Assembly (NCBI GenBank): GCA_047637555.1
Contig: JBLIKX010000001.1
Span: 8,294 to 72,293, forward strand
Length of the DNA stretch: 64,000 bases
Direction: 5' to 3'
From: Crocinitomicaceae bacterium
GTDB lineage: Bacteria; Patescibacteriota; Minisyncoccia; Phycocordibacterales; UBA1006
Shown: one piece after another, positions 8,202 to 61,157 of the stretch
Numbering within the stretch: the first letter of the stretch is position 1
How the letters are laid out: each line of letters starts with the position of its first letter
The notes under the pieces: generated by a model
The model's input: the letters and a program-made list of their open reading frames with translations, nothing else
Databases searched by the model: none
Told to the model about the DNA's origin: nothing
Program-made: the position numbers and the translations under genes

Positions 8202-9206
8202 CTAGATTTTTTCTGGTTTATAATCTTCTGGTGCATTAGCAAGATATTCTTCAAGTTGCTCTTGTGTGAGTAATCCTTCTTGAGCTCCAATATATTGAAC
8301 AACGTTCATAGAGTTAATTGGCGCCCATGATAATGCTTCAGCAACTGTTTTTCCATGTCCCAGAGCAATAGTAAATGCTGATGAAAATGAATCCCCAGCA
8401 CCTGTTCGTTCTACTGGTGGTTTTGGGTCTGGGTAAATTCGATGGAACCAATACTCATCATTATATGAATCGTAGGCATAGGCTCCATCAGGTCCATCAG
8501 TAATACATACAATTTTTGGACCAAGTTCATGCATTTGTTTCATAAGATTTTTTATATCATCTGAGTCTATTTTAAGAATCTTTTGAGCTTCTTCTACGTT
8601 ACAGAAAAACACCTCAGTCGCTGAGTAAATATCTGAAAGTTTTTCTTTACCGAGAGAAATTTGGAATGTTCCTGGTTGAAACGCCATTTTGATATTATTT
8701 TCTTTTATCCAAGTTGCAATATCTGCGTGATATTGCATCGAATCTTCTCCAACAGAAGAGAAATAGACCCACTTAGGAATGAGATCTTCTGTTTGCTTGG
8801 CAAGATCGTAGTTATAGTTCTCATGTTTAATAAGAATTGTTCGCTCTGCTTGAAAAGATAGAACATAATGATAATTAGTATTTTTACCATCTTCTACTGT
8901 TACATAATCAGTGATTACTCCATTTTCTTTTAGCGCTTCAATACATTCTTTACCGAATTGATCATTTCCTACATGTGTCATTGTCGTTGAGGTCAAACCT
9001 AATCGTGCCGCAGATACTGCTGCGTTTGGACCATTACCAACTGCCTTCACTACCTTTACGCTGTCATACGGAATTTTGTCCCCAAATCGCATTTCAAGCA
9101 TCTCAGTTCCGTTATGTTCCTCTACCTCAGCATCTTGTAATTTAATAAATGCATCAATTACGATGTCACCGATTGCTAAGAAATCGATATTTTTTTCTTT
9201 ATTCAT
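8202..9206 (-). CDS. PfkB-family carbohydrate kinase (ribokinase-like)
   Basis: TGAGDSFSSAF anion-hole/ATP motif near the C-terminus, N-terminal GDIVID substrate motif. Confidence 0.8.
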   Translation of the reverse strand: MNKEKNIDFLAIGDIVIDAFIKLQDAEVEEHNGTEMLEMRFGDKIPYDSVKVVKAVGNGPNAAVSAARLGLTSTTMTHVGNDQFGKECIEALKENGVITDYVTVEDGKNTNYHYVLSFQAERTILIKHENYNYDLAKQTEDLIPKWVYFSSVGEDSMQYHADIATWIKENNIKMAFQPGTFQISLGKEKLSDIYSATEVFFCNVEEAQKILKIDSDDIKNLMKQMHELGPKIVCITDGPDGAYAYDSYNDEYWFHRIYPDPKPPVERTGAGDSFSSAFTIALGHGKTVAEALSWAPINSMNVVQYIGAQEGLLTQEQLEEYLANAPEDYKPEKI

Positions 9207-22041: not shown

Positions 22042-23208
22042 ATGAAAAAAAAATGTGATTTTGGATCAAAAGCTTTTAATATTGCTGCATATTTACTTAT
22101 TAATAAGATTAAAAATATTACTTTTGATGGTGCTGCTGGCACAGGAAAAACTACTTTTGCTCGCAGGTTAAAAGAATTTTGCGAGATAAAAGGGATAAAT
22201 GTTGCACTCACAGCTGTAACTGGAACTGCTGCAAATAATATTGGTGGTGTAACTATCTCTAGTTTTTGCCAGTTGAGAACTTACAATTTAGAAGACCATG
22301 AGATTATTGAGCGTAATCAATTAGTTACTGCATTGTTGCGGCTAGTAAAAATACTTGTTATTGATGAAGTTAGTATGCTAACTGATGAGCAATTAAGACA
22401 AATAAACATTGCATGTCAGGCGGCAAAAGGAAACAAAAAACCTTTTGGTGGTATTTCTGTATTGCTAATGGGCGATCTTTGCCAACTTGAGCCTATAGAG
22501 ATCAACGATGATGAAATTATTGCTATCGATTCTGTCTTGGAAACAAAAGAGTATTTAAAAAAACTAAATTTTACTCAAATTCGTTTAAAAAAAAATTATA
22601 GACAGACAGATGAAAGAAGTCTTTATTTTTTAAATTCTTTAAGAAATATGATTGTTAATAAATCCATTAATAAAACAAAGATTAATGAGTTGTTTAATTT
22701 TCTCAAAAAAAATACTTCTCATGGAATACATCTTTATTCAAACATTAAAGATGTACCCTTAGAAGAGTTTAACCCAAGTCATTATTATTATTCAAAAGGT
22801 AATGCTCCTTATACGGCACTTCCTATAATGTATGGTTATAATTATCTAATAACAAAAAATACTGATAATTATTTTAATGGTCAGCATATTGTTCTAAGCG
22901 AAGATAACGAAGAAGAATTTCTTTATCAAGACTTTTTATATAAAAAAGAGTCAGGTTTTGATAATAATGGTACAGCATGCTTGCACACTGTTTTTGATAG
23001 GGTTATTGCAGAATATTTAGCATTGATTCCTTTGAGTGATATGACAACACGTCGCGTTCAAGGATCTACCTTTGATTCAGGATGCATTGCATCTGAATTT
23101 TTTGCTGAAGATAATAAGGTACTTCAAGTATCTTTAATTGGTTGGCTGAAAACATTATATACAGCACTTGGTAGATTTAGAGATCTATCTAATGTTTCGT
23201 TGTGTTAA
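22042..23208 (+). CDS. compact SF1B helicase, Dda/PIF1/RecD-like (AAA_30 family)
   Basis: Walker A GAAGTGKTTF, Walker B LVIDEVSM, motif III LLMGDLCQLEPI, C-terminal RRVQGSTFD and YTALGRFRDLSNV (motifs V-VI); 388 aa, very AT-rich codon usage. Confidence 0.7.
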   Translation: MKKKCDFGSKAFNIAAYLLINKIKNITFDGAAGTGKTTFARRLKEFCEIKGINVALTAVTGTAANNIGGVTISSFCQLRTYNLEDHEIIERNQLVTALLRLVKILVIDEVSMLTDEQLRQINIACQAAKGNKKPFGGISVLLMGDLCQLEPIEINDDEIIAIDSVLETKEYLKKLNFTQIRLKKNYRQTDERSLYFLNSLRNMIVNKSINKTKINELFNFLKKNTSHGIHLYSNIKDVPLEEFNPSHYYYSKGNAPYTALPIMYGYNYLITKNTDNYFNGQHIVLSEDNEEEFLYQDFLYKKESGFDNNGTACLHTVFDRVIAEYLALIPLSDMTTRRVQGSTFDSGCIASEFFAEDNKVLQVSLIGWLKTLYTALGRFRDLSNVSLC

Positions 23209-23766: not shown

Positions 23767-26700
23767 ATGAATACACGAGAAAAAAAATATTTTTCAAAAT
23801 ATAAAGATCCATTGATTGAAATGCCAAACCTGGTTGAAAATCAAATTGAATCGTTTGAAAAATTTATGAACGGAGGCCTTCAAGAGTCAATTATGGAGTT
23901 CTCTCCAGTTATGGATTACTCAGAAAAGAAATTTGAATTAAATTTCTTGGAATTTTCAGTTGAAAATCCAGAATTTGACGAATACTATGCTCGAGAGAAT
24001 AAAAAAACCTATGAAGCCCGATTAAAGGCCAAGGTCTCTCTTTATAATAAAACACTGGATTCCACGAAAGAAGAAGAAATTTTCTTAACTGAAATTCCAT
24101 TCATGACACCTCATGGTACCTTTATTATTAATGGTATTGAGCGAGTTATTGTGCCTCAGTTAGCACGATCATATGGAGTATTCTTTACCATGGATGACCA
24201 TATTAAGGGTCCATTCTTTGGAGCTAAACTTATTCCTGCACGAGGGGCGTGGATTGAATTTGAATCTAACAAGGATGGAGCCATTTATGTTCGAATCGAT
24301 AAAAAACGTAAGTTTGCTGCAACAGCACTATTGCGTGTTTTTGGATTGGAAACAACCGAAGAAATACTTGAAGCTTTCAAACATGATGAAGTAGCGTACA
24401 AACAAGTTGAAGCAACCCTAGCAAAAGATACCTCATTAGATAAACAAGAAGCTTACGCTGATGTATATCGACGGATTAGAGACGGAGAAGTAGCATCACC
24501 CGATGCACTTGTTGAATATTTTGAAGCTATTTTTGGAGATACCTTATATGATATGTCAGAAGTAGGCCGATATCATTTCAATAAACGATTTGACAAAGAA
24601 CTTCCAAAGAAAGGAGTTTACGAGCAAACACTTCAAGTTGAAGATCTAGTTATTATAATGACAAAGATCGCTCATATGAACATTGACCCAACATCAAAGG
24701 CTGATGATATTGATCATCTTGGTTCAAGGCGTGTACGATTCGTAGGAGAATTGTTGGAGCAAAAGGTAAGACAAGCTCTTTCTCAAATGAAACGAAATAT
24801 TAGAGATAGAATGTCGACTGTTGATAATGATACGACAGGATCAATGACCTTGATTAACCAACGTCCATTCCAAGCTCGAATGAAAGAGTTTTTTGCGACA
24901 TCTCAATTGTCACAATATATGGATCAGGAAAACGCACTATCAGAAATTTCTCACTTGCGGACACTCTCTGCTCTTGGACCTGGAGGTCTTACGCGAGAGC
25001 GTGCTGGATTTGAGGTACGGGATGTTCACCCGTCTCATTATGGACGTGTATGTCCAATCCACACTCCAGAGGGACAAAATATTGGATTGATTCTGCGTAT
25101 GAGTGTTTATGCTCGAATTAATAATTTCGGAATGATCGAAGCTCCGTATGCGAAAGTTATTAAAGGAAAGGTTACAGGGGAAATTGAATATCTTAACGCA
25201 ATGGATGAGGAGAAATATAATATTGCCCATGCATCAAACCCATATGAAAAAAATGGTAAATTCACTAATGAAATTGTAGAGGCTCGTATTAAAACACGAC
25301 CAGGTATTTGTACGCGAGAAGATGTTGATTATATTGACGTTGCGACAAACGCAGCATTTTCAGTTGCAACATCATTGATTCCATTTTTGGAGGCTGATGA
25401 TGCAAATCGATCTCTTATGGGGTCAAACATGATGAAGCAAGCCGTACCATTGGTAGTTCCACAAGCTCCACTTGTTGGAACAGGTATGGAAGGAAAAGCG
25501 GCACTGGATACTGGTCGCGTGGTTATTTCACGTTCAAACGGAACAGTCGTTGAGTCAGATGGTAAGCATATTGTCGTTAAGGATTCAAAAGGAAATCTTG
25601 AAACATATAATTTAATTAACTTTATTCGAACGAATTCAAACTCATTCTTCCATCAACGGTCAATAGTTTCATCAGGTCAAAAAGTTAAAAAAGATGAAGT
25701 ACTCGCTGATACTTCCACAACAGAAGGAGGACAATTAGCTATTGGTCAAAATGTCCTTGTGGCATTTATGTGTTGGAATGGGCAAAACTTTGAGGATGCA
25801 ATCATTCTTTCAGAAAAACTTGTTAAGAACTCAATTTTTACTTCAATTCGAATTGATGAATACGAATGTGTTGTTCGTGATACAAAACTAGGAGAAGAAC
25901 AAACTACAACCGACATTCCAAACGTAGGAGAAGGAAAGCTTGGAAATCTTGATGAAGATGGAATTATCCGTGTTGGAGCATACGTAGGAGAAAACGATAT
26001 CCTCGTTGGTAAGGTTACACCAAAGGGTGAAACTGAACTTACACCAGAAGAAAAACTTTTACGATCAATTTTTGGAGAAAAATCACGAGATGTAAAAGAC
26101 ACATCCCTTCGCCTAGGATACGGAAAAAAAGGACGAATTATTGGGGTAAAAATATTCTCACGAGATGCAGGGCATAAACTTGAATCAGGAGTATTAAAGA
26201 AGGTTTATATTGAAATTGCACAACTACGAAATATCAAGGTTGGAGATAAACTTGCTGGACGTCACGGAAACAAAGGGGTTATTTCTATTGTTCTTCCAGA
26301 GGAAGATATGCCATACATGGCTGACGGAACACCTATTGATGTTATTTTGACGCCACTTGGAATTCCTTCACGTATGAACTTGGGACAAATTCTTGAAATG
26401 CATCTAGGGCTGGCAGCGGATGCTCTAGGTTACCAAGCAATTGTTCCTTCGTTTGCCGGAGCAACTGCTGATGAAATTGCAGAGGAACTTGAAAAGGCTG
26501 GATTCTCTGGTACAGGTAAGGTAACGCTCTTTGATGGTCGAACAGGAGAAAAGTTTGATCAAGATATTGCGGTTGGGTATATGTATATCTTGAAACTGCA
26601 CCACATGATCGATGACAAAATGCACGCGCGTTCAATCGGACCATACTCACTAATCACCCAACAACCTCTTGGTGGTAAGGCTCAATCTGGTGGACAACGA

Positions 26701-27006
26701 TTTGGAGAAATGGAGGTTTGGGCTCTTGAAGGATACGGAGCAGCGCATACCTTGCGTGAAATGTTAACCATTAAATCAGATGATGTCGTTGGTCGATCAG
26801 CTGCCTTTGATTCTATTATTAAAGGTCAAAAGATTACTCAACAGAATACACCTGCTTCATTTGAAGTGTTGGTAAATTATCTGAGAGGATTATGTCTTGA
26901 TGTTAATCTTGATATTATTCGAGAAAACAACCTTATTAGTATTGATGAAGATGCTGTTGTGGAAGTAGAAGCAACAGAGGTAATCTCAGAATCAGATAAC
27001 GCATAA
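23767..27006 (+). CDS. rpoB: DNA-directed RNA polymerase subunit beta
   Basis: 1079 aa; conserved beta-subunit blocks (GPGGLTRERAGFEVRDVH, rifampicin region, NMQRQA-like core). Confidence 0.97.
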   Translation: MNTREKKYFSKYKDPLIEMPNLVENQIESFEKFMNGGLQESIMEFSPVMDYSEKKFELNFLEFSVENPEFDEYYARENKKTYEARLKAKVSLYNKTLDSTKEEEIFLTEIPFMTPHGTFIINGIERVIVPQLARSYGVFFTMDDHIKGPFFGAKLIPARGAWIEFESNKDGAIYVRIDKKRKFAATALLRVFGLETTEEILEAFKHDEVAYKQVEATLAKDTSLDKQEAYADVYRRIRDGEVASPDALVEYFEAIFGDTLYDMSEVGRYHFNKRFDKELPKKGVYEQTLQVEDLVIIMTKIAHMNIDPTSKADDIDHLGSRRVRFVGELLEQKVRQALSQMKRNIRDRMSTVDNDTTGSMTLINQRPFQARMKEFFATSQLSQYMDQENALSEISHLRTLSALGPGGLTRERAGFEVRDVHPSHYGRVCPIHTPEGQNIGLILRMSVYARINNFGMIEAPYAKVIKGKVTGEIEYLNAMDEEKYNIAHASNPYEKNGKFTNEIVEARIKTRPGICTREDVDYIDVATNAAFSVATSLIPFLEADDANRSLMGSNMMKQAVPLVVPQAPLVGTGMEGKAALDTGRVVISRSNGTVVESDGKHIVVKDSKGNLETYNLINFIRTNSNSFFHQRSIVSSGQKVKKDEVLADTSTTEGGQLAIGQNVLVAFMCWNGQNFEDAIILSEKLVKNSIFTSIRIDEYECVVRDTKLGEEQTTTDIPNVGEGKLGNLDEDGIIRVGAYVGENDILVGKVTPKGETELTPEEKLLRSIFGEKSRDVKDTSLRLGYGKKGRIIGVKIFSRDAGHKLESGVLKKVYIEIAQLRNIKVGDKLAGRHGNKGVISIVLPEEDMPYMADGTPIDVILTPLGIPSRMNLGQILEMHLGLAADALGYQAIVPSFAGATADEIAEELEKAGFSGTGKVTLFDGRTGEKFDQDIAVGYMYILKLHHMIDDKMHARSIGPYSLITQQPLGGKAQSGGQRFGEMEVWALEGYGAAHTLREMLTIKSDDVVGRSAAFDSIIKGQKITQQNTPASFEVLVNYLRGLCLDVNLDIIRENNLISIDEDAVVEVEATEVISESDNA

Positions 27007-27011
27007 TTATT

Positions 27012-30000
27012 ATGAATACAACAGATACTATGAAAAAGATTCAACAAGAAAAACAGGTTTCAATCCGCTTGGCTTCACCGGAAAAAATTCGGTCATGGTC
27101 TCATGGTGAGGTAGCCAAGCCAGAAACAATTAACTATAGAACAGGTCGTTCTGAAAGGAATGGACTCTTTGATGAGAGAATTTTTGGTCCAGAAAAAGAT
27201 TACGAATGTTACTGTGGAAAATACAAAGGTATTCGTTATCGTGATATTGTATGTGAAAAATGTGGAGTTGAGGTAACACGAGCTATTGTCCGTCGTTCGC
27301 GAATGGGACACATTGGTTTGGCTTCACCCGTTGCCCATATTTGGTTCTTACGAGGGATACCATCACGAATGGGATTGGTACTTAACATACCTGTTTCAAA
27401 ACTAGAAAAAGTTATTTATTTTGCAAGTTACATCATTACTGATGTACACCAGGATGTAAAAGAAAATGTATTGAAGGAGTTGCAGCGAGAATACAAGGCA
27501 AAGCAAAAAACTCTTGAATCAGATGAAGACAAAGAGAAGTTGAAAGGTCTTTTTGATAAAACAAAAAAACAGATTCAAGATATTGTTCTTTATAGTGTTA
27601 TTTCTGAAGATGAATATAACATCTATTCACTAAAATTTGGTTCAATTTTTGAAGCAGGTATTGGTGCAGAAGCAATTTTTTACATCTTCAAGACACTTGA
27701 TCTAGATGTGATTGAGGTAGAGCTTGGAGCTGCAGTAAACGCTACAAAGTCAGTTGCTGTTCGAACAAAAATCGAAAAGCGACTTTCACTTTTACGGTCA
27801 CTTAATCGAGAAAATATCCGTCCAGAATGGATGTTCCTTGAAGTGATCCCAGTTATTCCTCCGGCTTTGCGACCTATGGTTGCTCTTGAAGGAGGACGAT
27901 ATGCAACATCTGATGTTAATGATCTATATCGACGTGTAATCAACCGAAATAATCGTTTGAAGAAACTCATGAAAATTGGAGCACCAGATGTAATTTTAAG
28001 AAACGAAAAACGTATTCTTCAAGAAGCATGTGATTCGCTTATTGATAATACTATTCGTAAGCATTCAGGAACGGTTGCCAAATCTTCATCACAAAAACGA
28101 AATCTTAAATCTCTTTCAGACCAGCTAAAGGGTAAGCAAGGTTTGTTCCGACAAAATCTTCTTGGTAAACGTGTAGATTATTCTGGGCGTTCTGTTATTG
28201 TTGTTGGTCCAAAACTAGGAATCGACCAATGTGGTATTCCTAAAAACATGGCACTTGAACTTTTCCGACCATTTGTTATTTCAAAGATTATTGATCGTGA
28301 AATGGCGTTTAATGTACGTGGAGCAGGAAAATTACTTGAATCACCAACAGACGAAATTTGGGATATTCTTGAAAATATTATTGATGGTAAATATGTTCTT
28401 TTAAACCGTGCCCCAACATTACACCGACTTTCAATCCGAGCATTCAAGCCAATTCTTATTGAAGGAAAAGCTATTCAGCTGCACCCACTTTCGGTTAACG
28501 GATTTAATGCGGACTTTGATGGAGATCAAATGGCCGTACATGTACCGCTTTCAGAAGAAGCACAATACGAAGCTAAAGAGCTTATGGCTGCAAGCAAAAA
28601 TTTATTGCGACCAGCATCAGGTGAACCAACGGTTGCTCCATCACAGGATATGGTTTTAGGAGTGTACTGGATGACCAAAGCCATTGAAGGAGCTTTAGGA
28701 GAAGGAAAGATTTTTTCATCACCAAACGAAGCTATTACTTGTTATGATTTTGACAAGGTAGATTTCCGAGCAAAAATTTACGTACTTCCAACAGATTCAT
28801 CACGATATGATGAATTCGAAGGAAAGCCATTTGAAACAACCGTAGGGCGACTATTATTTAATAGTATTATGCCTAGTGACTTTGGTTATTTGAATCAAGA
28901 CATTAAGAAGAAAGATATTTCAAAAATTATTGCACGATTAATTGAAAAATATGGTATTGCTGCAACAGCTCCTGTTGTTGATAAAATTAAAGACTTTGGA
29001 TTCAAATATGTAACCTTCTCTGGTTCAACATTTGGTTATTCAGATGCAATTATTCCAAAGGAAAAGCACGCTATTATTGACACTGGGCGAAAGGCGGCTT
29101 TAGAGATTCAAGGTCAATATGATGAAGGTCTTATCTCTGAACCAGAACGATATCGAAAAACTATCGAATTATGGGAAGGGGTTAAGGTTGAAGTTGAAAA
29201 GGTTATTGGAGAAAATCTTCATAAATCTGAATCAATTTACGACATGGTTACTTCTGGAGCTCGTGGTTCAACATCAAACATGTTGCAAATGGGTGGTATG
29301 AAGGGTGTTATTGTTAACGCATCAGGACGTGCGATTGATTTCCCAATTTTAAGTTCATATAAAGAAGGGCTTACACCTATTGAGTACTTTATTACAACTC
29401 ATGGATCGCGTAAGGGTCTTACTGATACGGCTCTAAAAACAGCTTCTGCTGGATACCTAACACGTCGACTTCATGATGTTGCTCAAGATGTTGTAGTAAC
29501 AGAAGAAGACTGTAAAACAAAGAAGCATATTATTGCGACTGATATTAATTATGATGGAATTATTAAACCGCTCTTGGAAAATATTCTTGGACGTGTTACA
29601 TCTTCAAAAATTGTCGATGCAAAAGGAGAGACAGTTCTCAAGAAGAACCATCTTATTACTCGTAATGATGCAGAGACAGTTGTTGCCGCTGGTATTACTG
29701 AGGTTGCAGTACGAACACCAATCAAATGTGATTCACTTCATGGTGTCTGCCAAAAATGTTACGGGCTTGATCTTGGGCGAAATGCTTTGGTTAAGGTTGG
29801 AGAAGCAGTAGGAACTATTGCTTCTCAATCAATTGGTGAGCCAGGAACACAACTAACACTTCGAACTTTCCACGCGGGAGGGGTTACAGGGTTAGATATT
29901 ACGACGGGTCTACCTCGTATTGAAGAGTTGTTTGAGAAACGTTCAAACATTAAATCACCAGCACTTATCTCTAAAACAGGAGGTCTTGTTGTTGATGTAA

Positions 30001-30707
30001 GAGAAAAGGAAGGTGTTAAGATTATTGAAGTATTATCTGATACTGAAATTACCGTTGGGGCAAATAAAACAAGAACGATTGAATATGCTCTTGATAAAAG
30101 ACGTACTCCTGTTGTAAAGAAAAATGACCGTGTAGAGGTTGGAGATCTGGTTACAGATGGTTCTGCAAGTATCGATGATTTATTTGATATTGCAGGTACT
30201 TCTCGTGCACAAGAGTATGTAATTTCTGAGGTAGCAAAAGTTTATGAATTAAACTCTGCACCAGTTTCAAAAAAACACATTGAAATTATTGCACGATTGA
30301 TGTTCTCTCGACGTAAAATTACTTCACCAGGAGATACAAAATTCTCAACAGGAGATGTTGTTGAATACATTGAACTTACTCAAGAGAATAACCTTGTAGA
30401 AGCTGAAGGAAAACTAGGAGCAAAAGCGGTAACCGTTGTAAAAGGTATCTCAGAGGTAGCTCTTTCAACTAAATCATGGTTATCATCTGCATCATTCCAA
30501 CATACCACTCGTATTTTGGTATCAGCAGCAGCAGGTGGAGAAATTGATGAATTGAGAGGTCTAAAAGAAAACGTTATTGTTGGAAATCTTATCCCAGCAG
30601 GAACTGGATTCAGAAATGATTTTATCTCGTTTGATAAAATGCCAGGACGAGTTCGAGCAGGAGAAATTAAATCTCTTGAGGCTGAACTTGGAGATAATAT
30701 TTCATAA
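27012..30707 (+). CDS. rpoC: DNA-directed RNA polymerase subunit beta'
   Basis: 1231 aa; zinc-finger CGKYK...C...C, the NADFDGDQM catalytic Asp triad, bridge-helix and trigger-loop blocks. Confidence 0.97.
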
Positions 30708-30720
30708 TTAAATCATTACC

Positions 30721-32463
30721 ATGAAAAACACCGACATCATTAAAGATAAATTGAATATCGTAGATGTGGTGGGATCATATGTAAAGCTTGAAAAGGCAGG
30801 AAAGACATACAAAGGAAAATCACCCTTTACTAATGAAAAAACCCCATCATTCTTTGTTTCACCAGAGAAGGGTTTTTTCTATTGTTTTTCAAGTGGTAAG
30901 GGTGGTGATATTTTTACTTTTGTCCAAGAAATTGAGCGCATCGAATTCCATGATGCACTTAAGTTACTTGCCGAAAAAGCAGGTATAAAGTTAGAATCAA
31001 ACGCTATTTCATTAGAAAAACATAATGAAACAACTATCCGATTCAAGGTTTTGGATGATATTACAAAATGGTATGAAATTAACTTGAGGAAAAACACTGA
31101 AGTAGTCGAGCATCTTTTAAAAAGAGGTCTTACCAAGGAAACAATCATTAAGTTTCGGCTTGGTTTTTCATTAGATGCATGGCGTGAATGTTATGAATAT
31201 CTTCATTCCCGAAAATATCGAGACCAAGACATCGAATCTGTCGGATTGATTATTAAAAAAGAAGGAAGTGGGTATTATGATCGATTTAGATCACGAATTA
31301 TGTTTCCTCTTATGGATGGGCGTGGACGAGTTGTTGGTTTTTCCGGACGTATATTTACTGATGATCCAGATACTCAGGGTGCCAAATACATCAATAGCCC
31401 AGAAGGTCCCTTGTTTGATAAATCAGAGGTTCTCTACGGCTATCACACAGCTAAGACATCAATGAGTAAGGAAGATGCATGTATTCTCGTAGAAGGACAG
31501 TTTGATGTAGTTATGGCTCAGCAGGCTGGATATATTCACACGGTAGCCATATCAGGAACAGGACTAACTGATCATCATATAAATATGATCAAACGTTTTA
31601 CTGATAACATCTTCCTGGCGCTTGATAGTGATAAGGCCGGAGTCAAAGCTACACGTCGAAGTGTTCTTGCCGCTTATCGGCACGGCATGCAGGTAAAAAT
31701 TATTATGATGCTTGATGGCATGGATCCAGCTGATACTATTGTTCATAGTAAAGAACAGTGGGATCTCTGTGTTCATGACTCAAAAGATTATATAGATTAT
31801 CGACTGGAATTATTCAATCGAGTAGATCACACCTTCGAAGAAAAAAAGAAACTTGTAGATACTGACCTTTTTACCTTTGTATATCTGATGAAAAGCTCAA
31901 TGGTCCAAGATAGGGTGTTGCAAAAATTAGCATTATTTTTAGGAGTAAGCATAGAGGCTGTACGAAATGATTTCACAAGTTTTAAACCTGATCAAGATGA
32001 TATTATTAAATCTGATAATCATTTTGTTTATACAAAGAATGTATCTCCGATATCTGAACGAGATATCAAAAGGGAAGTAGCGCTTATCACTCATTTTACA
32101 AAAGACCAAGACTACGAAATTGAACTTGAGATTCAGGCTCAAATTGAAGCTTTGTATAGCGAACTCTACGATGAAGAATTAAAGACTACCATCGCAGAGT
32201 TACCCGAAACTGAAAAAAACATGCAGTTGTTTATCTTACAAGATAAATACAAAGATACATCAGAAAAATCATTTGGATCTATGTTATTAACTATGTTGGC
32301 AGAAGAGAAAATACGTAGACTGGATAATCGCTCGGCACAGTTGCTTGAAGAAACTCGCCAGACAGAATCAAAAGCAGACGGAGAAAAACTGGCTGAATTA
32401 ACGGTTGAGCTTCAAAAAATACTTTTATTAAAAAAAGATTTAAAAAATCTTATTCAAAAATAA
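30721..32463 (+). CDS. dnaG: DNA primase DnaG (zinc-ribbon ligands degenerate)
   Basis: TOPRIM EGQFD...DSDKAG and RNA-polymerase-domain blocks are present; the N-terminal zinc-binding region reads KSPFTNEKTPSF...FYCFSSGKGG where canonical DnaG has CPFHxEKTPSF...YHCFGCG. Confidence 0.9.
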   Translation: MKNTDIIKDKLNIVDVVGSYVKLEKAGKTYKGKSPFTNEKTPSFFVSPEKGFFYCFSSGKGGDIFTFVQEIERIEFHDALKLLAEKAGIKLESNAISLEKHNETTIRFKVLDDITKWYEINLRKNTEVVEHLLKRGLTKETIIKFRLGFSLDAWRECYEYLHSRKYRDQDIESVGLIIKKEGSGYYDRFRSRIMFPLMDGRGRVVGFSGRIFTDDPDTQGAKYINSPEGPLFDKSEVLYGYHTAKTSMSKEDACILVEGQFDVVMAQQAGYIHTVAISGTGLTDHHINMIKRFTDNIFLALDSDKAGVKATRRSVLAAYRHGMQVKIIMMLDGMDPADTIVHSKEQWDLCVHDSKDYIDYRLELFNRVDHTFEEKKKLVDTDLFTFVYLMKSSMVQDRVLQKLALFLGVSIEAVRNDFTSFKPDQDDIIKSDNHFVYTKNVSPISERDIKREVALITHFTKDQDYEIELEIQAQIEALYSELYDEELKTTIAELPETEKNMQLFILQDKYKDTSEKSFGSMLLTMLAEEKIRRLDNRSAQLLEETRQTESKADGEKLAELTVELQKILLLKKDLKNLIQK

Positions 32464-32598
32464 TTAAACACAGAAATAGTCGCAAGTTGTATCTACTGTT
32501 GTTCATTTATTCCTATAATTTTGTTTTATTTTTCTTGATGTTTCGAAAGAAATTTATAGAGCAAGTTATTTATTTACTAATCAAATTTAAAAACCATC

Positions 32599-33768
32599 AT
32601 GGCACCAAAAAAAATTACAAAAAAAATTACAAAAAAAAAGGTGGATCCTGTGCAAACTCATATTCAAGAGCAACGAGAAATTGAAGCTCGAGATAAAAAA
32701 GCAAAGGCCTTGGTTGAAAAAGGTAAAAAACGTCGTTTTTTAACTTATGCAGAAATCTTAAAGCAATTTCCAGATATTGAAGAGGATGTTATGTTTCTTG
32801 ATGAATTGTATGGGATGCTTGGTGATGCCGAGGTTGAAATTGTTGAAGGTGGAACCAGTTCTGGTGGTGGAGGAATGTTGGACATGACTGACGAGGAATT
32901 ACTGGAAAAAGATTTTGCGACTAAAAAACAACCAGAAACCAAAGATTCTATTCAAATGTATCTTCGTGAAATTGGTAAATATCCACTTATTAAGGCTGCA
33001 GAAGAAGTGTCTCTAGCAAAACGAATCGAATCTGGTGACGATGAAGCAAAAAACCTTCTTGCAAAGGCAAACCTACGTTTGGTAGTCTCGTTAGCTAAAA
33101 AATATGTTGGACGATCTCCAGATCTAACCCTGCTTGATTTAATTCAAGAAGGAAACATCGGATTATTTAAAGCTGTTGAAAAATTTGATTGGACTCGAGG
33201 ATACAAATTCTCAACATATGCAACATGGTGGATTCGTCAATCAATCACGCGGGCACTTGCTGATCAATCTCGAACGATTCGTATACCAGTTCATATGGTT
33301 GAAACAATTTCTAAATACAAACAGGTCTTCAAGCGAATGAGTCAGGGACTAGGTCGTGAGCCATTGCCCGAAGAAATTGCTTTAGAGATGGGTCTTGATG
33401 TTGAAAAGATTCATATGATTGGAAAGATTAACCAAACGACAATGTCACTCGAAGAACCTATTGGTTCAGATGGAGAAGAGAAATCTACGAGAGGTGAATT
33501 TATTGCAGACGAATCAATTCCCTCTCCTGATCGAGATTCTTCAAAAACTATTTTGAAAGATCAACTCCAAGAAATTTTAGATGAGTTAACTGAAAAAGAA
33601 CGAACGATTATTGAATTACGATATGGTCTTGTTGATGGTATCTCTCATACTCTGGAAGAGGTTGGTCGTAAGTTTGATGTTACGCGTGAACGTATACGTC
33701 AGATTGAGGCAAAAGTTCATGAAAAGATTAGGGTTAATGATAAGATTAAGAAGCTTCAAGATTACTAA
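32599..33768 (+). CDS. rpoD: RNA polymerase sigma factor RpoD (group 1 sigma-70)
   Basis: region 1.2 [11 protein letters not shown], region 2 [17 protein letters not shown]...[13 protein letters not shown], region 4 [21 protein letters not shown]. Confidence 0.9.
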
Positions 33769-48240: not shown

Positions 48241-50886
48241 ATGGCAAAAGCAGATCAAAATAAAATAAACCAGGAATGGATTACTATTAAGGGTGCGCGA
48301 ACGCATAACTTGAAAGATATCGATGTTCAAATCCCTCGTAATAAAATGACCGTTATTACAGGTCTTTCGGGGTCAGGAAAATCATCGTTGGCATTTGATA
48401 CGATATTTGCGGAAGGACAACGACGATATGTTGAATCACTATCGAGTTATGCGCGTCAATTCTTGAACCAAATGTCGAAACCTGATGTAGATGAAATTAC
48501 AGGTCTCTCCCCAGCGATTTCAATTGATCAAAAAACACGATCAAATAATCCACGTTCAACGATTGCGACTATTACAGAAATCTATGATTATTTGCGTATT
48601 CTCTACGCACGAATAGGACAGCCATTTTCTCCTATTTCTGGTTTACGGATCAAAAAACTTTCAAATCAAGAAATTCTAGATTTTGTTTTTAAGATTGTGG
48701 AAAAAAACAAAGATCCTAAAAAAGCTAAAAAGGTTATGGGAGTGTCGGTTGATGAAATGCAGGTACATATTTTAACACCAGTCATTCGAGGAAGAAAAGG
48801 TGAGCACTATCAATTAATGTATGACATGTTGAACAAGGGATACGCCAAGGCCCGCGTTGATGGATCAATGAAGAGTCTACGCAAACAAATAAAACTGACT
48901 AAAACAAAAAAACATGACATTGACTTTGTTGTGGATAGTTTTGCCGTTCATGAATTTACAGATAACCCGGACGATGTACGATTGCGACTAGGAGAGGCGG
49001 TAGAGAAGGCTATCGACGAGTCAGAAGGGATGATCAAGATCCTTGTTGAAACAGAATCAGGTGAATTAATTGATGAAACATTGATGTCTGCGAAATTAGT
49101 TTGTCCGGAAGATGGGTATGTTTTTCCCGAGATTGAACCACGACTTTTTTCGTTTAACTCACCCTACGGTGCATGTCCTACTTGTAATGGACTAGGAACA
49201 AAGCATATGTTTGGGGAAGATGTTTGCCCTGAATGTATGGGTGCACGATTAAGACCAGAAGCCTTGCAAGTGTTTCTTGGAAAATATGACAAAGATAATA
49301 ATGTTGTTGATCACGAAGACCATCGAAAAAACATCGATGATTTTGTTGATATGAAAATCTCAGAGGCCTATGAATTCATGGCTGAAATTGATCTAACCGA
49401 AAAAGAAGCAAAAATTGCAGCACCGCTATTACGAGAAATTGAAAACCGTCTTGAGTTTCTTATGTCTGTTGGGTTGGAATATCTTTCATTAGGTCGCCGA
49501 GCTCATACGCTCTCTGGTGGAGAGTCTCAGCGTATTCGTTTAGCGTCACAACTAGGTTCTCAACTTGTTGGGGCTCTATATGTACTTGACGAGCCAACGA
49601 TTGGTCTGCATGCACGCGATAATAAACGCCTTATTCAAACCCTTCGTGAGCTGACTGAAAAAGGAAATACTATTATCGTAGTAGAACACGATGAGGAAAC
49701 AATTTTTGCATCTGACTATTTAATAGAGATTGGTCCAGGTGCAGGAAAGCACGGGGGAGAAGTAATTGTTGCTGATGAATTACAAAAATTATTAAAGTCT
49801 CCAGCATCTATTAAGAAATCACTTACCTTGCAATATCTGACCGGTAAGAAAAAGATTGAATTACCAATAAGACGACGCACCAAAGACAAGGGGGGAATTG
49901 CTATCGAAGGTATTGTTCATAATAATTTAAAGAATGTGAATATTGAAATTCCATTAAATAAACTAACCTGTATCACCGGTGTTTCTGGATCTGGAAAATC
50001 ATCATTTATGCATGGGGTTTTGGCTAAAAATATGGAAGCACGTCTATCACGACGGAATAAATCAAATGAGGTTATTCGTGCACACACGGCACATGGATTT
50101 AGTCAGATTTCTCGGGGAATTGTAATTGATCAGTCTCCTATTGGAAGAACACCTCGTAGTAACCCGGCAACGTATACAGGAGCCTTTGATCATATCCGCG
50201 ACCTCTTTGCCGAAACAACCGAAGCGCAAATTCGTGGTTGGAAGGCCGGACGGTTTTCGTTTAATACCAAAGGAGGAAGATGTGAGGCTTGTCAGGGGCG
50301 AGGAACAGTAGCTGTTGAAATGGGATTTCTACCGACTGTTCATGTGACCTGTGATGTCTGTATGGGAAAACGCTACGAAAAAGAAACCTTACAGGTTCAA
50401 TTTAAAGGAAAGAATATTTACCAAGTTTTAGAGATGAATATTGAAGACGCACAAAAATTCTTTGGTGATATTCCAGCAATTAATGATCGTTTGGTTACAA
50501 TGTTACAAACAGGGTTAGGTTATTTAAAATTGGGACAACCAGCTAATACTCTCTCTGGAGGAGAATCACAACGCGTAAAGATCTCTTCTGAATTATACCG
50601 ACCTCAATTAGATAAAACATTGTATCTATTAGATGAGCCAACGGTTGGTCTACATTTTGAAGATGTAAAAAAATTAATTGAAATTATTCAACGATTGGTA
50701 AACAAAGGTAATACTGTTGTGGTAATCGAACATAATATGGATTTGATTAAATGTTCAGATTATATGATTGATTTTGGTCCAAAATCAGGAGACGAAGGAG
50801 GAAAGGTAGTCGCAAAGGGTACCCCAGAAAATATTGTAGATAATAAAAATTCAGTAACCGGAGAATTCTTACGAAAACATTTATAA
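48241..50886 (+). CDS. uvrA: excinuclease ABC subunit A
   Basis: two ABC ATPase modules (GLSGSGKSSLAFDT and GVSGSGKSS Walker A, two LSGGE signatures) and Zn-finger Cys clusters; 881 aa. Confidence 0.95.
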   Translation: MAKADQNKINQEWITIKGARTHNLKDIDVQIPRNKMTVITGLSGSGKSSLAFDTIFAEGQRRYVESLSSYARQFLNQMSKPDVDEITGLSPAISIDQKTRSNNPRSTIATITEIYDYLRILYARIGQPFSPISGLRIKKLSNQEILDFVFKIVEKNKDPKKAKKVMGVSVDEMQVHILTPVIRGRKGEHYQLMYDMLNKGYAKARVDGSMKSLRKQIKLTKTKKHDIDFVVDSFAVHEFTDNPDDVRLRLGEAVEKAIDESEGMIKILVETESGELIDETLMSAKLVCPEDGYVFPEIEPRLFSFNSPYGACPTCNGLGTKHMFGEDVCPECMGARLRPEALQVFLGKYDKDNNVVDHEDHRKNIDDFVDMKISEAYEFMAEIDLTEKEAKIAAPLLREIENRLEFLMSVGLEYLSLGRRAHTLSGGESQRIRLASQLGSQLVGALYVLDEPTIGLHARDNKRLIQTLRELTEKGNTIIVVEHDEETIFASDYLIEIGPGAGKHGGEVIVADELQKLLKSPASIKKSLTLQYLTGKKKIELPIRRRTKDKGGIAIEGIVHNNLKNVNIEIPLNKLTCITGVSGSGKSSFMHGVLAKNMEARLSRRNKSNEVIRAHTAHGFSQISRGIVIDQSPIGRTPRSNPATYTGAFDHIRDLFAETTEAQIRGWKAGRFSFNTKGGRCEACQGRGTVAVEMGFLPTVHVTCDVCMGKRYEKETLQVQFKGKNIYQVLEMNIEDAQKFFGDIPAINDRLVTMLQTGLGYLKLGQPANTLSGGESQRVKISSELYRPQLDKTLYLLDEPTVGLHFEDVKKLIEIIQRLVNKGNTVVVIEHNMDLIKCSDYMIDFGPKSGDEGGKVVAKGTPENIVDNKNSVTGEFLRKHL

Positions 50887-59336: not shown

Positions 59337-61157
59337 ATGATAGATATGACATCACAGGAAATACGAAAACGATTCTTAGCGTTCTTTGAAAAACGCGGAC
59401 ATGCTATCTTGCCTTCAGCATCATTAATTACTACTGATGATCCAAAGGCCACAAATGCAACATTATTCAATACTGCGGGTATGCAACCCTTGATTCCTTT
59501 TTTAATGGGACAAAAACATGATACTGGAAAGCGTCTCGCAAGTTCACAAAAATGTGTGCGAACAGGTGACCTGGAAGAAGTCGGTGATAATACTCACGTG
59601 ACATTCTTTGAGATGCTTGGGAACTGGTCTCTTGGTGATTATTTTAAAAAGGAGGCTATCTCTTGGTCATGGGAATTCCTGACTGATACTGATGAAGGTC
59701 TTGGTCTTGATCCAGAGCGTTTATATGTAACAGTATTTATTGGAAATGATATGGTTCCACGTGATAATGAGGCTGTAGAAATTTGGAAACAGTTTATTCC
59801 TGAAAATCGAATTTATTACCGAGACTCAAAAGACAACTGGTGGACCGCAGGACCTAATTCTCCAGCAGGACCATCAACTGAAATATTTTATGACCTTACC
59901 GGAGAACTTGGTGATCTATCTGATACAGAATTTGAAAAAGCTGATAAAGATCAACAGGTCGTGGAGATTTGGAACGATGTATTTATGGTATATAAACAAG
60001 AAAGAGGTGAGGTAACAGGTAAACTCTCACAGAGAAATGTGGATACGGGTGCAGGGTTGGAGCGTTTAACTGCAGTTACGCAAGGAAAAAATAATATTTT
60101 TGATACTGATTTATTTTTACCACTACTAAATATCATAAAGGAAAATGCAGAAAAATATGAACAAAAGCATGCCCGAATTTTAGCTGATCATATTAAGACA
60201 TCTGTATTTCTCATTAATGATGGTGTTATTATTTCAAATACAGGGCGAGGGTATGTACTACGACGTATATTAAGGCGGGCTTATTCATCACTCGAAGCAA
60301 TGGAATGTTCTGAAAAAATTATTCCAGAACTTATTCATACTGTTGTTAATATGTATAAAGATTTATATTTTAAAAATGTTGATGAAAAGAAGATAGCAAT
60401 TAAAATAAAGGTAGTTGCAACAGAAATGGATAAGGTTATTAATATCATCAAGCGTGGAGTAAAAATATTTAAGAAAATAAAAGAAAATCCACATACCTTG
60501 ATTACAGGAAAATTTTTAATGGATCTAGAGCAAACCCAAGGTCTGCCATTATCTATGTCAAAAAAATTGGCCAAAAAATTCGGTATTGAAATTTCAGATG
60601 ACTCATTAGAGGAATGTAAAAAAATAAGAGTTGAACATCAGGAACTATCTCGAACGGGAGCAGATCAAAAATTTAAAGGAGGTTTATCTCAGGACACACC
60701 AAAAATTAGAGCACTTCATACCGCTACGCACTTGATGCTTGCTGGTCTTCGTAAGGAACTCGGAAATGACGTTCATCAAAAAGGTTCAAATATTACCGAA
60801 GAGAGAACACGTTTTGATTTTACGCATGGAGAAAAAGTTTCTCGAGAGATATTAAATAAGGTGGAATTATATGTAAGGGATGCAATTACTACAAATGCGA
60901 AAATGGGCGTTCAGTTAATGGAAAAGGAAAAGGCAAAGAATTCTGATGTTGTTGGTTCATTTTGGGAAAAATATCCAGATATCGTAAAGGTATGGACTAT
61001 TATAGATAAAGACCAAAATATTTACTCAAAGGAATTGTGCGGAGGACCACATGTGGAAGATCTATCACAGATTGCAGAATTTGGGGTATTTAAAATAAAA
61101 AAAGAGGAATCGTCATCCGCAGGCGTTCGTCGTATCAAAGCCATTCTGGAAAAATAA
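59337..61157 (+). CDS. alaS: alanyl-tRNA synthetase, short form (catalytic + editing domains, no C-Ala domain)
   Basis: N-terminal FFEKRGH...NTAGMQPL...FFEMLGNWSLGDYFK class II core; editing HTATHLM and CGGPHV motifs; only 606 aa. Confidence 0.9.
   Translation: MIDMTSQEIRKRFLAFFEKRGHAILPSASLITTDDPKATNATLFNTAGMQPLIPFLMGQKHDTGKRLASSQKCVRTGDLEEVGDNTHVTFFEMLGNWSLGDYFKKEAISWSWEFLTDTDEGLGLDPERLYVTVFIGNDMVPRDNEAVEIWKQFIPENRIYYRDSKDNWWTAGPNSPAGPSTEIFYDLTGELGDLSDTEFEKADKDQQVVEIWNDVFMVYKQERGEVTGKLSQRNVDTGAGLERLTAVTQGKNNIFDTDLFLPLLNIIKENAEKYEQKHARILADHIKTSVFLINDGVIISNTGRGYVLRRILRRAYSSLEAMECSEKIIPELIHTVVNMYKDLYFKNVDEKKIAIKIKVVATEMDKVINIIKRGVKIFKKIKENPHTLITGKFLMDLEQTQGLPLSMSKKLAKKFGIEISDDSLEECKKIRVEHQELSRTGADQKFKGGLSQDTPKIRALHTATHLMLAGLRKELGNDVHQKGSNITEERTRFDFTHGEKVSREILNKVELYVRDAITTNAKMGVQLMEKEKAKNSDVVGSFWEKYPDIVKVWTIIDKDQNIYSKELCGGPHVEDLSQIAEFGVFKIKKEESSSAGVRRIKAILEK

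Follow-up and report, generated by a model that had tools for sequence, protein, structure and literature searches.

The primase gene dnaG in the 64-kb stretch of DNA analysed here (positions 8,294 to 72,293 of contig JBLIKX010000001.1, hereafter the window) encodes a protein whose N-terminal zinc ribbon has lost three of its four metal ligands, and our analysis indicates that this protein is probably a working replicative primase whose template-recognition domain has retained the fold of a zinc ribbon but no tetrahedral zinc site. The gene lies at 30721..32463 (like all features given below, on the + strand) and was assigned from the list of open reading frames (ORFs), Pfam and sequence matches in the PDB; it codes for 580 aa followed by a stop codon and its translation begins MKNTDIIKDKLNIVDVVGSYVKLEKAGKTYKGKSPFTNEKTPSFFVSPEKGFFYCFSSGKGGD. 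In DnaG one zinc ion is bound by a Cys-His-Cys-Cys set (CHCC, the CHC2 motif), whose residues have been called highly conserved in reviews (PMC6163395; PMC8928506). This set is replaced by S34-T37-C55-S58 in the window protein. The HMMER alignment to Aquifex DnaG (2au3) is gapless across the ribbon and pairs 'nCPFHpddTPSFyVSPskqiFkCFgCGvGGD' with 'kSPFTNEKTPSFFVSPEKGFFYCFSSGKGGD', so that S34, T37, C55 and S58 fall on C, H, C and C, and the same ligand columns were obtained when E. coli DnaG (C40/H43/C61/C64) was aligned by MAFFT. Both alignments place the ribbon proper, with the four former ligand positions, at residues 29-63 (30805..30909), where Ser34 (TCA, 30820..30822) stands for the first ligand Cys, Thr37 (ACT, 30829..30831) for the ligand His and Ser58 (AGT, 30892..30894) for the fourth ligand Cys, and Cys55 (TGT, 30883..30885) is the sole ligand position retained. 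The initial annotation of this DNA had claimed that three of the four ligands were lost and only the third Cys kept (S, T, C, S), and had placed the site at 30800-30930; the HMMER and MAFFT columns bear this out and all four codons lie inside that interval. The alignments that it had proposed as a check found the ligands absent and no offset Cys or His, as residues 1-100 have no Cys apart from C55 and a single His, H77, which is located in the helix after the ribbon, and we therefore rejected shifted ligands. Without a CHC2 set, the window ribbon as read from its sequence is homologous to a zinc-binding domain but should not itself be classed as one.

A sequencing or assembly error, or a pseudogene, has a negligible probability as the source of this pattern. 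Only the prior for sequence derived from metagenome-assembled genomes speaks in its favour, and against it are the intact 580-aa frame and the same residues encoded by different codons in about 200 homologues. In addition, the same protein (P0001) was found with 100% identity on 4 contigs from three sources, which excludes a sequencing error, a concern already raised in the initial annotation. Judging by the homologues recovered, much of the Paceibacteria has the zinc-less DnaG ribbon as its normal state. Among the best 120 full-length homologues, 96 were zinc-less and 22, the more distant ones, had CHCC, and of the species-representative genomes (n=79), 55 carried a zinc-less and 24 a CHCC DnaG. 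When residues 1-100 were searched against 1.84 billion cluster representatives (50% identity clusters), about 65 zinc-less and 77 CHCC sequences were found among the best 150 of ~31,750 matches. Pooling and de-duplicating the full-length homologues left 315 sequences, 201 of them zinc-less and the remaining 114 zinc-type, with no partly liganded site in any of the 315. The initial annotation had named as a finding against it that close relatives might show these residues as a lineage-wide normal state with zinc-independent folding already known: the first part holds for the relatives, whereas for the second we found no report of a DnaG ribbon known to fold without zinc. The closest relatives place the window, which is AT-rich chromosomal DNA (~34% G+C), in the class Paceibacteria of the Patescibacteria. 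In public records the window protein (P0001) is labelled 'Crocinitomicaceae bacterium' and the related L076 'Acidimicrobiales bacterium'; both labels are probably binning or taxonomy errors, because their RpoC, RpoD and DnaG are typical of Paceibacteria.

The rest of the domain has been retained to a degree that points to continued use. The Pfam family Zn_ribbon_DnaG (PF01807) matched residues 4-93 with an E-value of 7.5e-31 and 106 bits against a cut-off of 24.9, and in the PDB the window protein is matched most closely by the DnaG proteins of Aquifex, B. subtilis, S. aureus and E. coli. In a set of 66 zinc-less sequences, seventeen domain positions never varied, among them P35, F36, E39, S43, F44, F56, G61, G62 and D63, in agreement with the earlier observation that the ligand loss is specific and leaves the neighbouring motifs intact. 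Mean pairwise identity among the 201 zinc-less proteins was 73% in the ribbon, 66% in the whole domain, 49% in the catalytic core and 16% in the C-terminus; the ribbon is thus the most conserved part of zinc-less DnaG, and the regions rank in the same order in the zinc-type relatives. Likewise, non-synonymous divergence (dN) between the window and L008 was 0.037 in the domain (0 in the ribbon), 0.11 in the polymerase domain/core and 0.29 in the C-terminus. These patterns indicate that the domain is under purifying selection, the opposite of decay. Furthermore, the catalytic part appears intact. The DNAG_N part of the RNA-polymerase domain (residues 118-245, 31072..31455; PF08275, E 5.3e-38) contains the motifs GRVVGFSGR and KYINSPE, and the TOPRIM fold (residues 254-341, 31480..31743; Pfam Toprim_2 and Toprim_4) contains EGQFD (258-262), DSDKAG (302-307) and DGMDPAD (332-338). 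The acidic residues E258, D262, D302, D304 and D335 were invariant in 315/315 aligned homologues, including 201/201 zinc-less ones, in line with the previous description of both domains as normal. The window protein combines a PF01807-homologous ribbon domain with a DNAG_N and TOPRIM core that has its acidic residues, two of the features expected of a bacterial DnaG primase.

This evidence makes it very improbable that the domain is a relic, with template recognition lost and the primase impaired or repurposed as in metazoan Twinkle. The N-terminal zinc-ribbon-like domain of metazoan TWINKLE, a T7 gp4-like primase-helicase, lost its cysteines, and zinc-less DnaG is like it in being a DnaG/T7-type primase whose ribbon cysteines have gone. 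Sequence changes in the primase domain of animal Twinkle abolished primase activity (PMC3610141), and human Twinkle was the next match after DnaG domains when the predicted structure described below was searched with Foldseek, although this match was weak and non-significant (E 0.38; template modelling (TM) score 0.46). However, unlike Twinkle, which lost both catalytic residues and activity, zinc-less DnaG has invariant catalytic residues and a ribbon under strong purifying selection. The relic explanation is also difficult to reconcile with a domain that is the slowest evolving of the protein, in which all non-ligand signature residues are invariant and whose ribbon has a dN of 0 between species with saturated synonymous sites elsewhere, and with the position of the gene in a conserved rpoC-dnaG-rpoD arrangement.

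We modelled the ribbon-homologous N-terminal domain (residues 4-93, 30730..30999; delimited by PF01807, AlphaFold2 and Foldseek) with AlphaFold2, using an alignment of zinc-less sequences only. The model has the five strands and flanking helices of the DnaG ribbon domain, with a predicted local distance difference test score of ~90 across the ribbon (mean 85.6), and Foldseek superposed it on 1d0q_A with a TM score of 0.86 and a root-mean-square deviation of 1.1 A, and on 2au3 with a TM score of 0.84. The prediction weakly supports a kept fold. Compared with the canonical DnaG ribbons 1D0Q of B. stearothermophilus and 2AU3 of Aquifex aeolicus (50% and 42% identity to the window protein over 91 aligned columns), the window domain shares the predicted five-strand ribbon with helices and its location before the RNA-polymerase/TOPRIM core, but differs in the absence of three ligands, a Ser in place of the knuckle Gly and, at position 52, a bulky hydrophobic residue. 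These last two changes co-vary with ligand loss. Position 57, Ser57 in the window (TCA, 30889..30891) for the knuckle Gly of CFGCG, was Gly in 113/114 zinc-type and Ser in 197/201 zinc-less sequences. Position 52, Phe52 in the window (30874..30876), was T/S/I/M in zinc-type versus F/M/L in zinc-less sequences, with a mutual information of 0.58 with ligand state, a value exceeded among the non-ligand columns only by 57. In addition, position 32 changes from Ala in the zinc-type to Gly in the zinc-less ribbon and position 33 from Arg to Lys or Leu.

These substitutions suggest how the fold could be maintained. The zinc staple between the two knuckles would be replaced by hydrogen bonds among the side chains of Ser34, Thr37, Cys55 (or Asp), Ser57 and Ser58, and Phe52 would add hydrophobic packing at the former zinc site. 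The enzyme would then prime like other DnaGs, with the ribbon reading the template trinucleotide and passing it to the TOPRIM/RNA-polymerase core, and the zinc-type and zinc-less ribbons would represent alternative, internally co-adapted versions of one module. A similar exchange exists in the LID of adenylate kinase, where a Cys4-Zn site of the Gram-positive enzymes corresponds to a hydrogen-bond network of His, Ser, Asp and Thr in E. coli. The likeness is that polar residues take the place of zinc at the same four positions, the adenylate kinase keeping its fold and activity, and that the set of Ser, Thr/Asn, Asp/Cys and Ser/Thr found in DnaG is chemically similar; the difference is that adenylate kinase is an unrelated protein with another fold, and that its hydrogen-bond network has been demonstrated whereas that of DnaG is proposed from residue patterns. 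Some type IA topoisomerases also have zinc-ribbon-like C-terminal domains without cysteines. These resemble DnaG as TOPRIM-family enzymes with ribbon domains that bind single-stranded DNA with or without zinc, but unlike the DnaG ribbon their domain belongs to another family, occupies another position in the protein and is not homologous to PF01807.

The residues at the former ligand positions follow the pattern S/T-x-C/D-S/T/A/E in the 201 zinc-less homologues, and they leave room for another interpretation: the site may bind another metal (Mg2+, Ca2+ or Na+) through Ser/Thr/Asn oxygens and the Asp or Cys of position 3, or zinc may be completed by another domain or subunit. We consider this unlikely. 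In its favour, position 1 (Ser34) was Ser in 200/201 sequences and position 3 (Cys55) was Cys in 176 and Asp in 25, that is, Cys or Asp in 201/201, a restriction tighter than a filler role needs, and the variants SNDS, SSDS and SKDS offer oxygen ligands. However, position 2 (Thr37) is variable (T, N, S, K, A, V, G, R) and so free as to accept Lys, Arg, Ala, Val or Gly, and position 4 (Ser58), with S in 122, T in 65, A in 13 and E in 1, is Ala in the SNDA group, whose four ligand positions are all devoid of Cys and His. At most two or three weak ligands, with one carboxylate at best, would remain, and no compensating Cys or His was found elsewhere in the domain. Several points do weigh against a working primase with a zinc-free ribbon. 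The description 'zinc-free' is taken from the sequence, and the near-invariant Cys/Asp at position 3 together with Ser at position 1 could be the signature of another function or another kind of metal site. The support from AlphaFold is weak, since metals play no part in its predictions and 1D0Q and 2AU3 are among the structures it has seen. Additionally, the count of one dnaG covers the 64-kb window, and a second, zinc-type primase may lie elsewhere in the genome. The number and direction of the switches between ribbon types presented below are uncertain, because they come from neighbour-joining trees on simple distances.

Zinc sites in the neighbouring proteins were compared through the recognisable sites in the proteins of the window. 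RpoC keeps both of its zinc sites (C66/C68/C81/C84 and C834/C906/C913/C916), the four CxxC pairs of UvrA and the CxCxxC motif of TGT are intact, and so is the Cys-rich tail of a rhodanese-family protein. The loss is therefore specific to DnaG and no genome-wide decay of Cys motifs is apparent. According to this, it is quite improbable that the ligand loss is part of a genome-wide sparing of zinc in small-genome bacteria and not particular to the primase. Such sparing has a precedent in the C- zinc-ribbon ribosomal proteins, which are a known zinc-economy device (PMC3087516), but every other recognisable zinc site of the window is intact and the CHC2 ribbon persists in close relatives whose genomes are very similar. 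The zinc-less DnaG nevertheless has the features of a C- derivative, with ligands replaced and the rest conserved, and its sequence is consistent with continued function. As in the C- ribosomal proteins, liganded and unliganded ribbon versions of an informational protein exist, both apparently functional and patchy with respect to the species tree (PMC3087516). Unlike them, zinc-less DnaG is a replisome enzyme whose domain reads DNA. In the ribosomal case both forms occur as paralogues in some genomes, where the C- copy is controlled by Zur; for DnaG, the 64-kb window contains a single gene.

The distribution of the two ribbons suggests several replacements of one by the other within this set of related lineages. 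We built neighbour-joining trees from RpoC plus RpoD, from the DnaG core without the ribbon domain and from both concatenated, and at least 4 state changes were obtained in 100/100 bootstraps, compared with ~16 for shuffled labels. The patchy distribution is thus incongruent with the organismal phylogeny, both in these trees and in the pair L070 (CHCC) and L076 (STCS), which share 89% identity in RpoC, 87% in RpoD and 85% in the DnaG core. A mixed pair as close as this (RpoC 89%) implies several switches. Their ribbons differ in 12/32 residues over residues 29-60 (~62% identity, counted by eye), whereas by our own count in the alignment the helices flanking the ribbon are ~94% identical. The L076 ribbon is nearly identical to that of L013, the L070 ribbon has a distinctive CYGC knuckle also found in another zinc-type group, and at the nucleotide level the ribbons of this pair have higher identity to same-state ribbons of distant lineages. 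A mosaic-like ribbon pattern was noted in L070 versus L076, and also with L054, L077, L013 and L025, species of differing ribbon type whose RpoC, RpoD and DnaG core are 85-89% identical. Recent recombination as the origin of the L070/L076 difference was nonetheless discarded: codon sharing at identical amino acids revealed no clear donor and no synonymous-site trace of recent transfer in this pair, and amino-acid constraint can explain the remainder.

Codon usage at the co-varying positions bears on how often the zinc-less state arose. Ser57 was encoded by TCN in 56/56 zinc-less loci, two nucleotide steps away from the GGN Gly codons of zinc-type loci, and Ser34 by TCN in 54/56, and this sharing argues that the zinc-less ribbons have a common origin. 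On a single origin the evidence is divided, since the TCN codons favour common descent yet the neighbour-joining trees never gave fewer than 4 changes. Three unusual ribbons may be informative on how one state gave way to the other: in L041, CHCC is combined with a Ser at position 57 (CFSC), P0247 has S, R, D and E with Gly57 retained, and P0206 has T, G, C and T. Zinc-less ribbons were also present on two predicted viral contigs of IMG/VR, L080:3001-3261 (S,T,C,G; KSPFTNEKSASF...CFSGGSGGD) and L081:2887-3843 (S,T,C,S; KSPFTNEKTPSC...CFSSGKKG). The L081 ribbon sits in a 318-aa ORF in which no homology was detected outside the ribbon domain, and among GenBank phage records only matches with <60% identity were found. 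The two contigs may belong to Paceibacteria phages and be a possible vehicle for exchange of the module.

Within an incomplete coverage of the literature, we found no published description of a DnaG whose ribbon is zinc-less, be it from Patescibacteria or from other organisms. What the zinc motif does in bacterial primase has been described as unresolved (PMC6163395). With the ligands lost and all other signature residues under strong selection, a natural family of zinc-less primases argues that the metal is dispensable for both the chemistry and template recognition, and the family provides ready-made proteins to distinguish whether zinc acts as a staple or in template sensing. Ser57 and a hydrophobic residue at position 52 would be a recipe for engineering a zinc-independent ribbon. 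Furthermore, annotation of these proteins as 'CHC2 zinc finger' misleads metalloproteome predictions for candidate-phyla bacteria, and the interleaved forms offer a tractable case of the loss or regain of a metal site made of several residues, with no intermediates to be seen.

The ribbon code of the window also carries a zone of suppressed synonymous change, at 30721..30906 (codons 1-62), which overlaps the ribbon domain. It was detected in the window subclade of 13 sequences, and covers the same stretch in L001-L008 and L088-L094. Nucleotide identity to these relatives was 85-100% in the zone compared with 55-83% in the flanks, including rpoC, and between the window and L004 third codon positions were 100% identical in codons 21-60 and ~45% elsewhere. 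The proportion of synonymous differences (pS) was 0.045 in the ribbon versus 0.75 in the core, and synonymous codon diversity was 0.30 versus 0.55 (Mann-Whitney p 1.4e-9). A scan of metagenomes with a degenerate pattern that allowed any synonymous codons except AGY Ser recovered seven loci only, all with nearly the same nucleotides. No such synonymous conservation was found in the other zinc-less clades or in the zinc-type clades. Differences in the segment scale with overall divergence (Spearman rho 0.90), which favours constraint over recent transfer, and recombination was rejected as the cause on these grounds.

A candidate mRNA hairpin at 30835..30879, weakly supported by an RNAalifold consensus, has the arms GAAAAAAC and GUUUUUUC, an inner stem UUCUUUG/CAGAGAA and 16 bp in all. 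Among the 13 relatives 98.6% of cells were paired and 2 compensatory changes at wobble positions were present, and 12/500 shuffles were equal to it; the hairpin is suggestive only and spans a quarter of the constrained zone. Two further helices were discarded: a long-range one between the dnaG start codon and codons 55-58 (single-sequence z -3.46), whose 5' arm varies in relatives without compensation, and one between codons 22-29 and codons 51-58, whose pairing is disrupted in the majority of relatives. Nothing above chance emerged when 30400-31200 was scanned against Rfam and for promoters and terminators. An ORF of 66 codons in the +2 frame (30788..30988) overlaps the ribbon code and is open in most of the subclade's relatives. 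The limits of this ORF and of the constrained zone do not coincide, which speaks against it as the cause, and it may be a by-product of the nucleotide conservation. A broader proposal, which we hold only tentatively and think doubtful as a whole, is that Paceibacteria have two discrete, co-adapted ribbons swapped as a short cassette, possibly by phage, and that in the window subclade a nucleic-acid signal in the ~190 nt, either an mRNA structure or an overlapping element, freezes the synonymous sites. If true, this would be the first polymorphism of the C+/C- style (with and without ligands) described in a replisome enzyme.

Beyond the core, ~140 residues had no Pfam match and only 16-19% mean pairwise identity among relatives; this weakly conserved C-terminal region (32041..32460) is presumed to be the helicase-binding domain from its position in DnaG, where that domain is poorly conserved generally (PMC6163395). 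Upstream of dnaG, across a 13-nt gap, lies rpoC (27012..30707), and rpoD (32599..33768) is directly downstream, both identified from their ORF translations. Among the related loci (L001-L079), rpoC was found upstream in 61/79 and rpoD downstream in 72/79, and the rpoC-dnaG-rpoD order is common to zinc-less and zinc-type loci. The gene order in the window, rpoB-rpoC-dnaG-rpoD (23767-33768), is not that of the classical rpsU-dnaG-rpoD operon, and no obvious Shine-Dalgarno sequence was seen at the dnaG start, 13 nt past the rpoC stop. A PIF1-like helicase ORF (388 aa, 22042-23208) adjoins rpoB upstream, the usual place of ribosomal protein genes. Lastly, UvrA (48241-50886) is short, with 881 aa and four CxxC pairs only, as is AlaRS (59337-61157), with 606 aa, and both resemble the truncated architectures common in small genomes.

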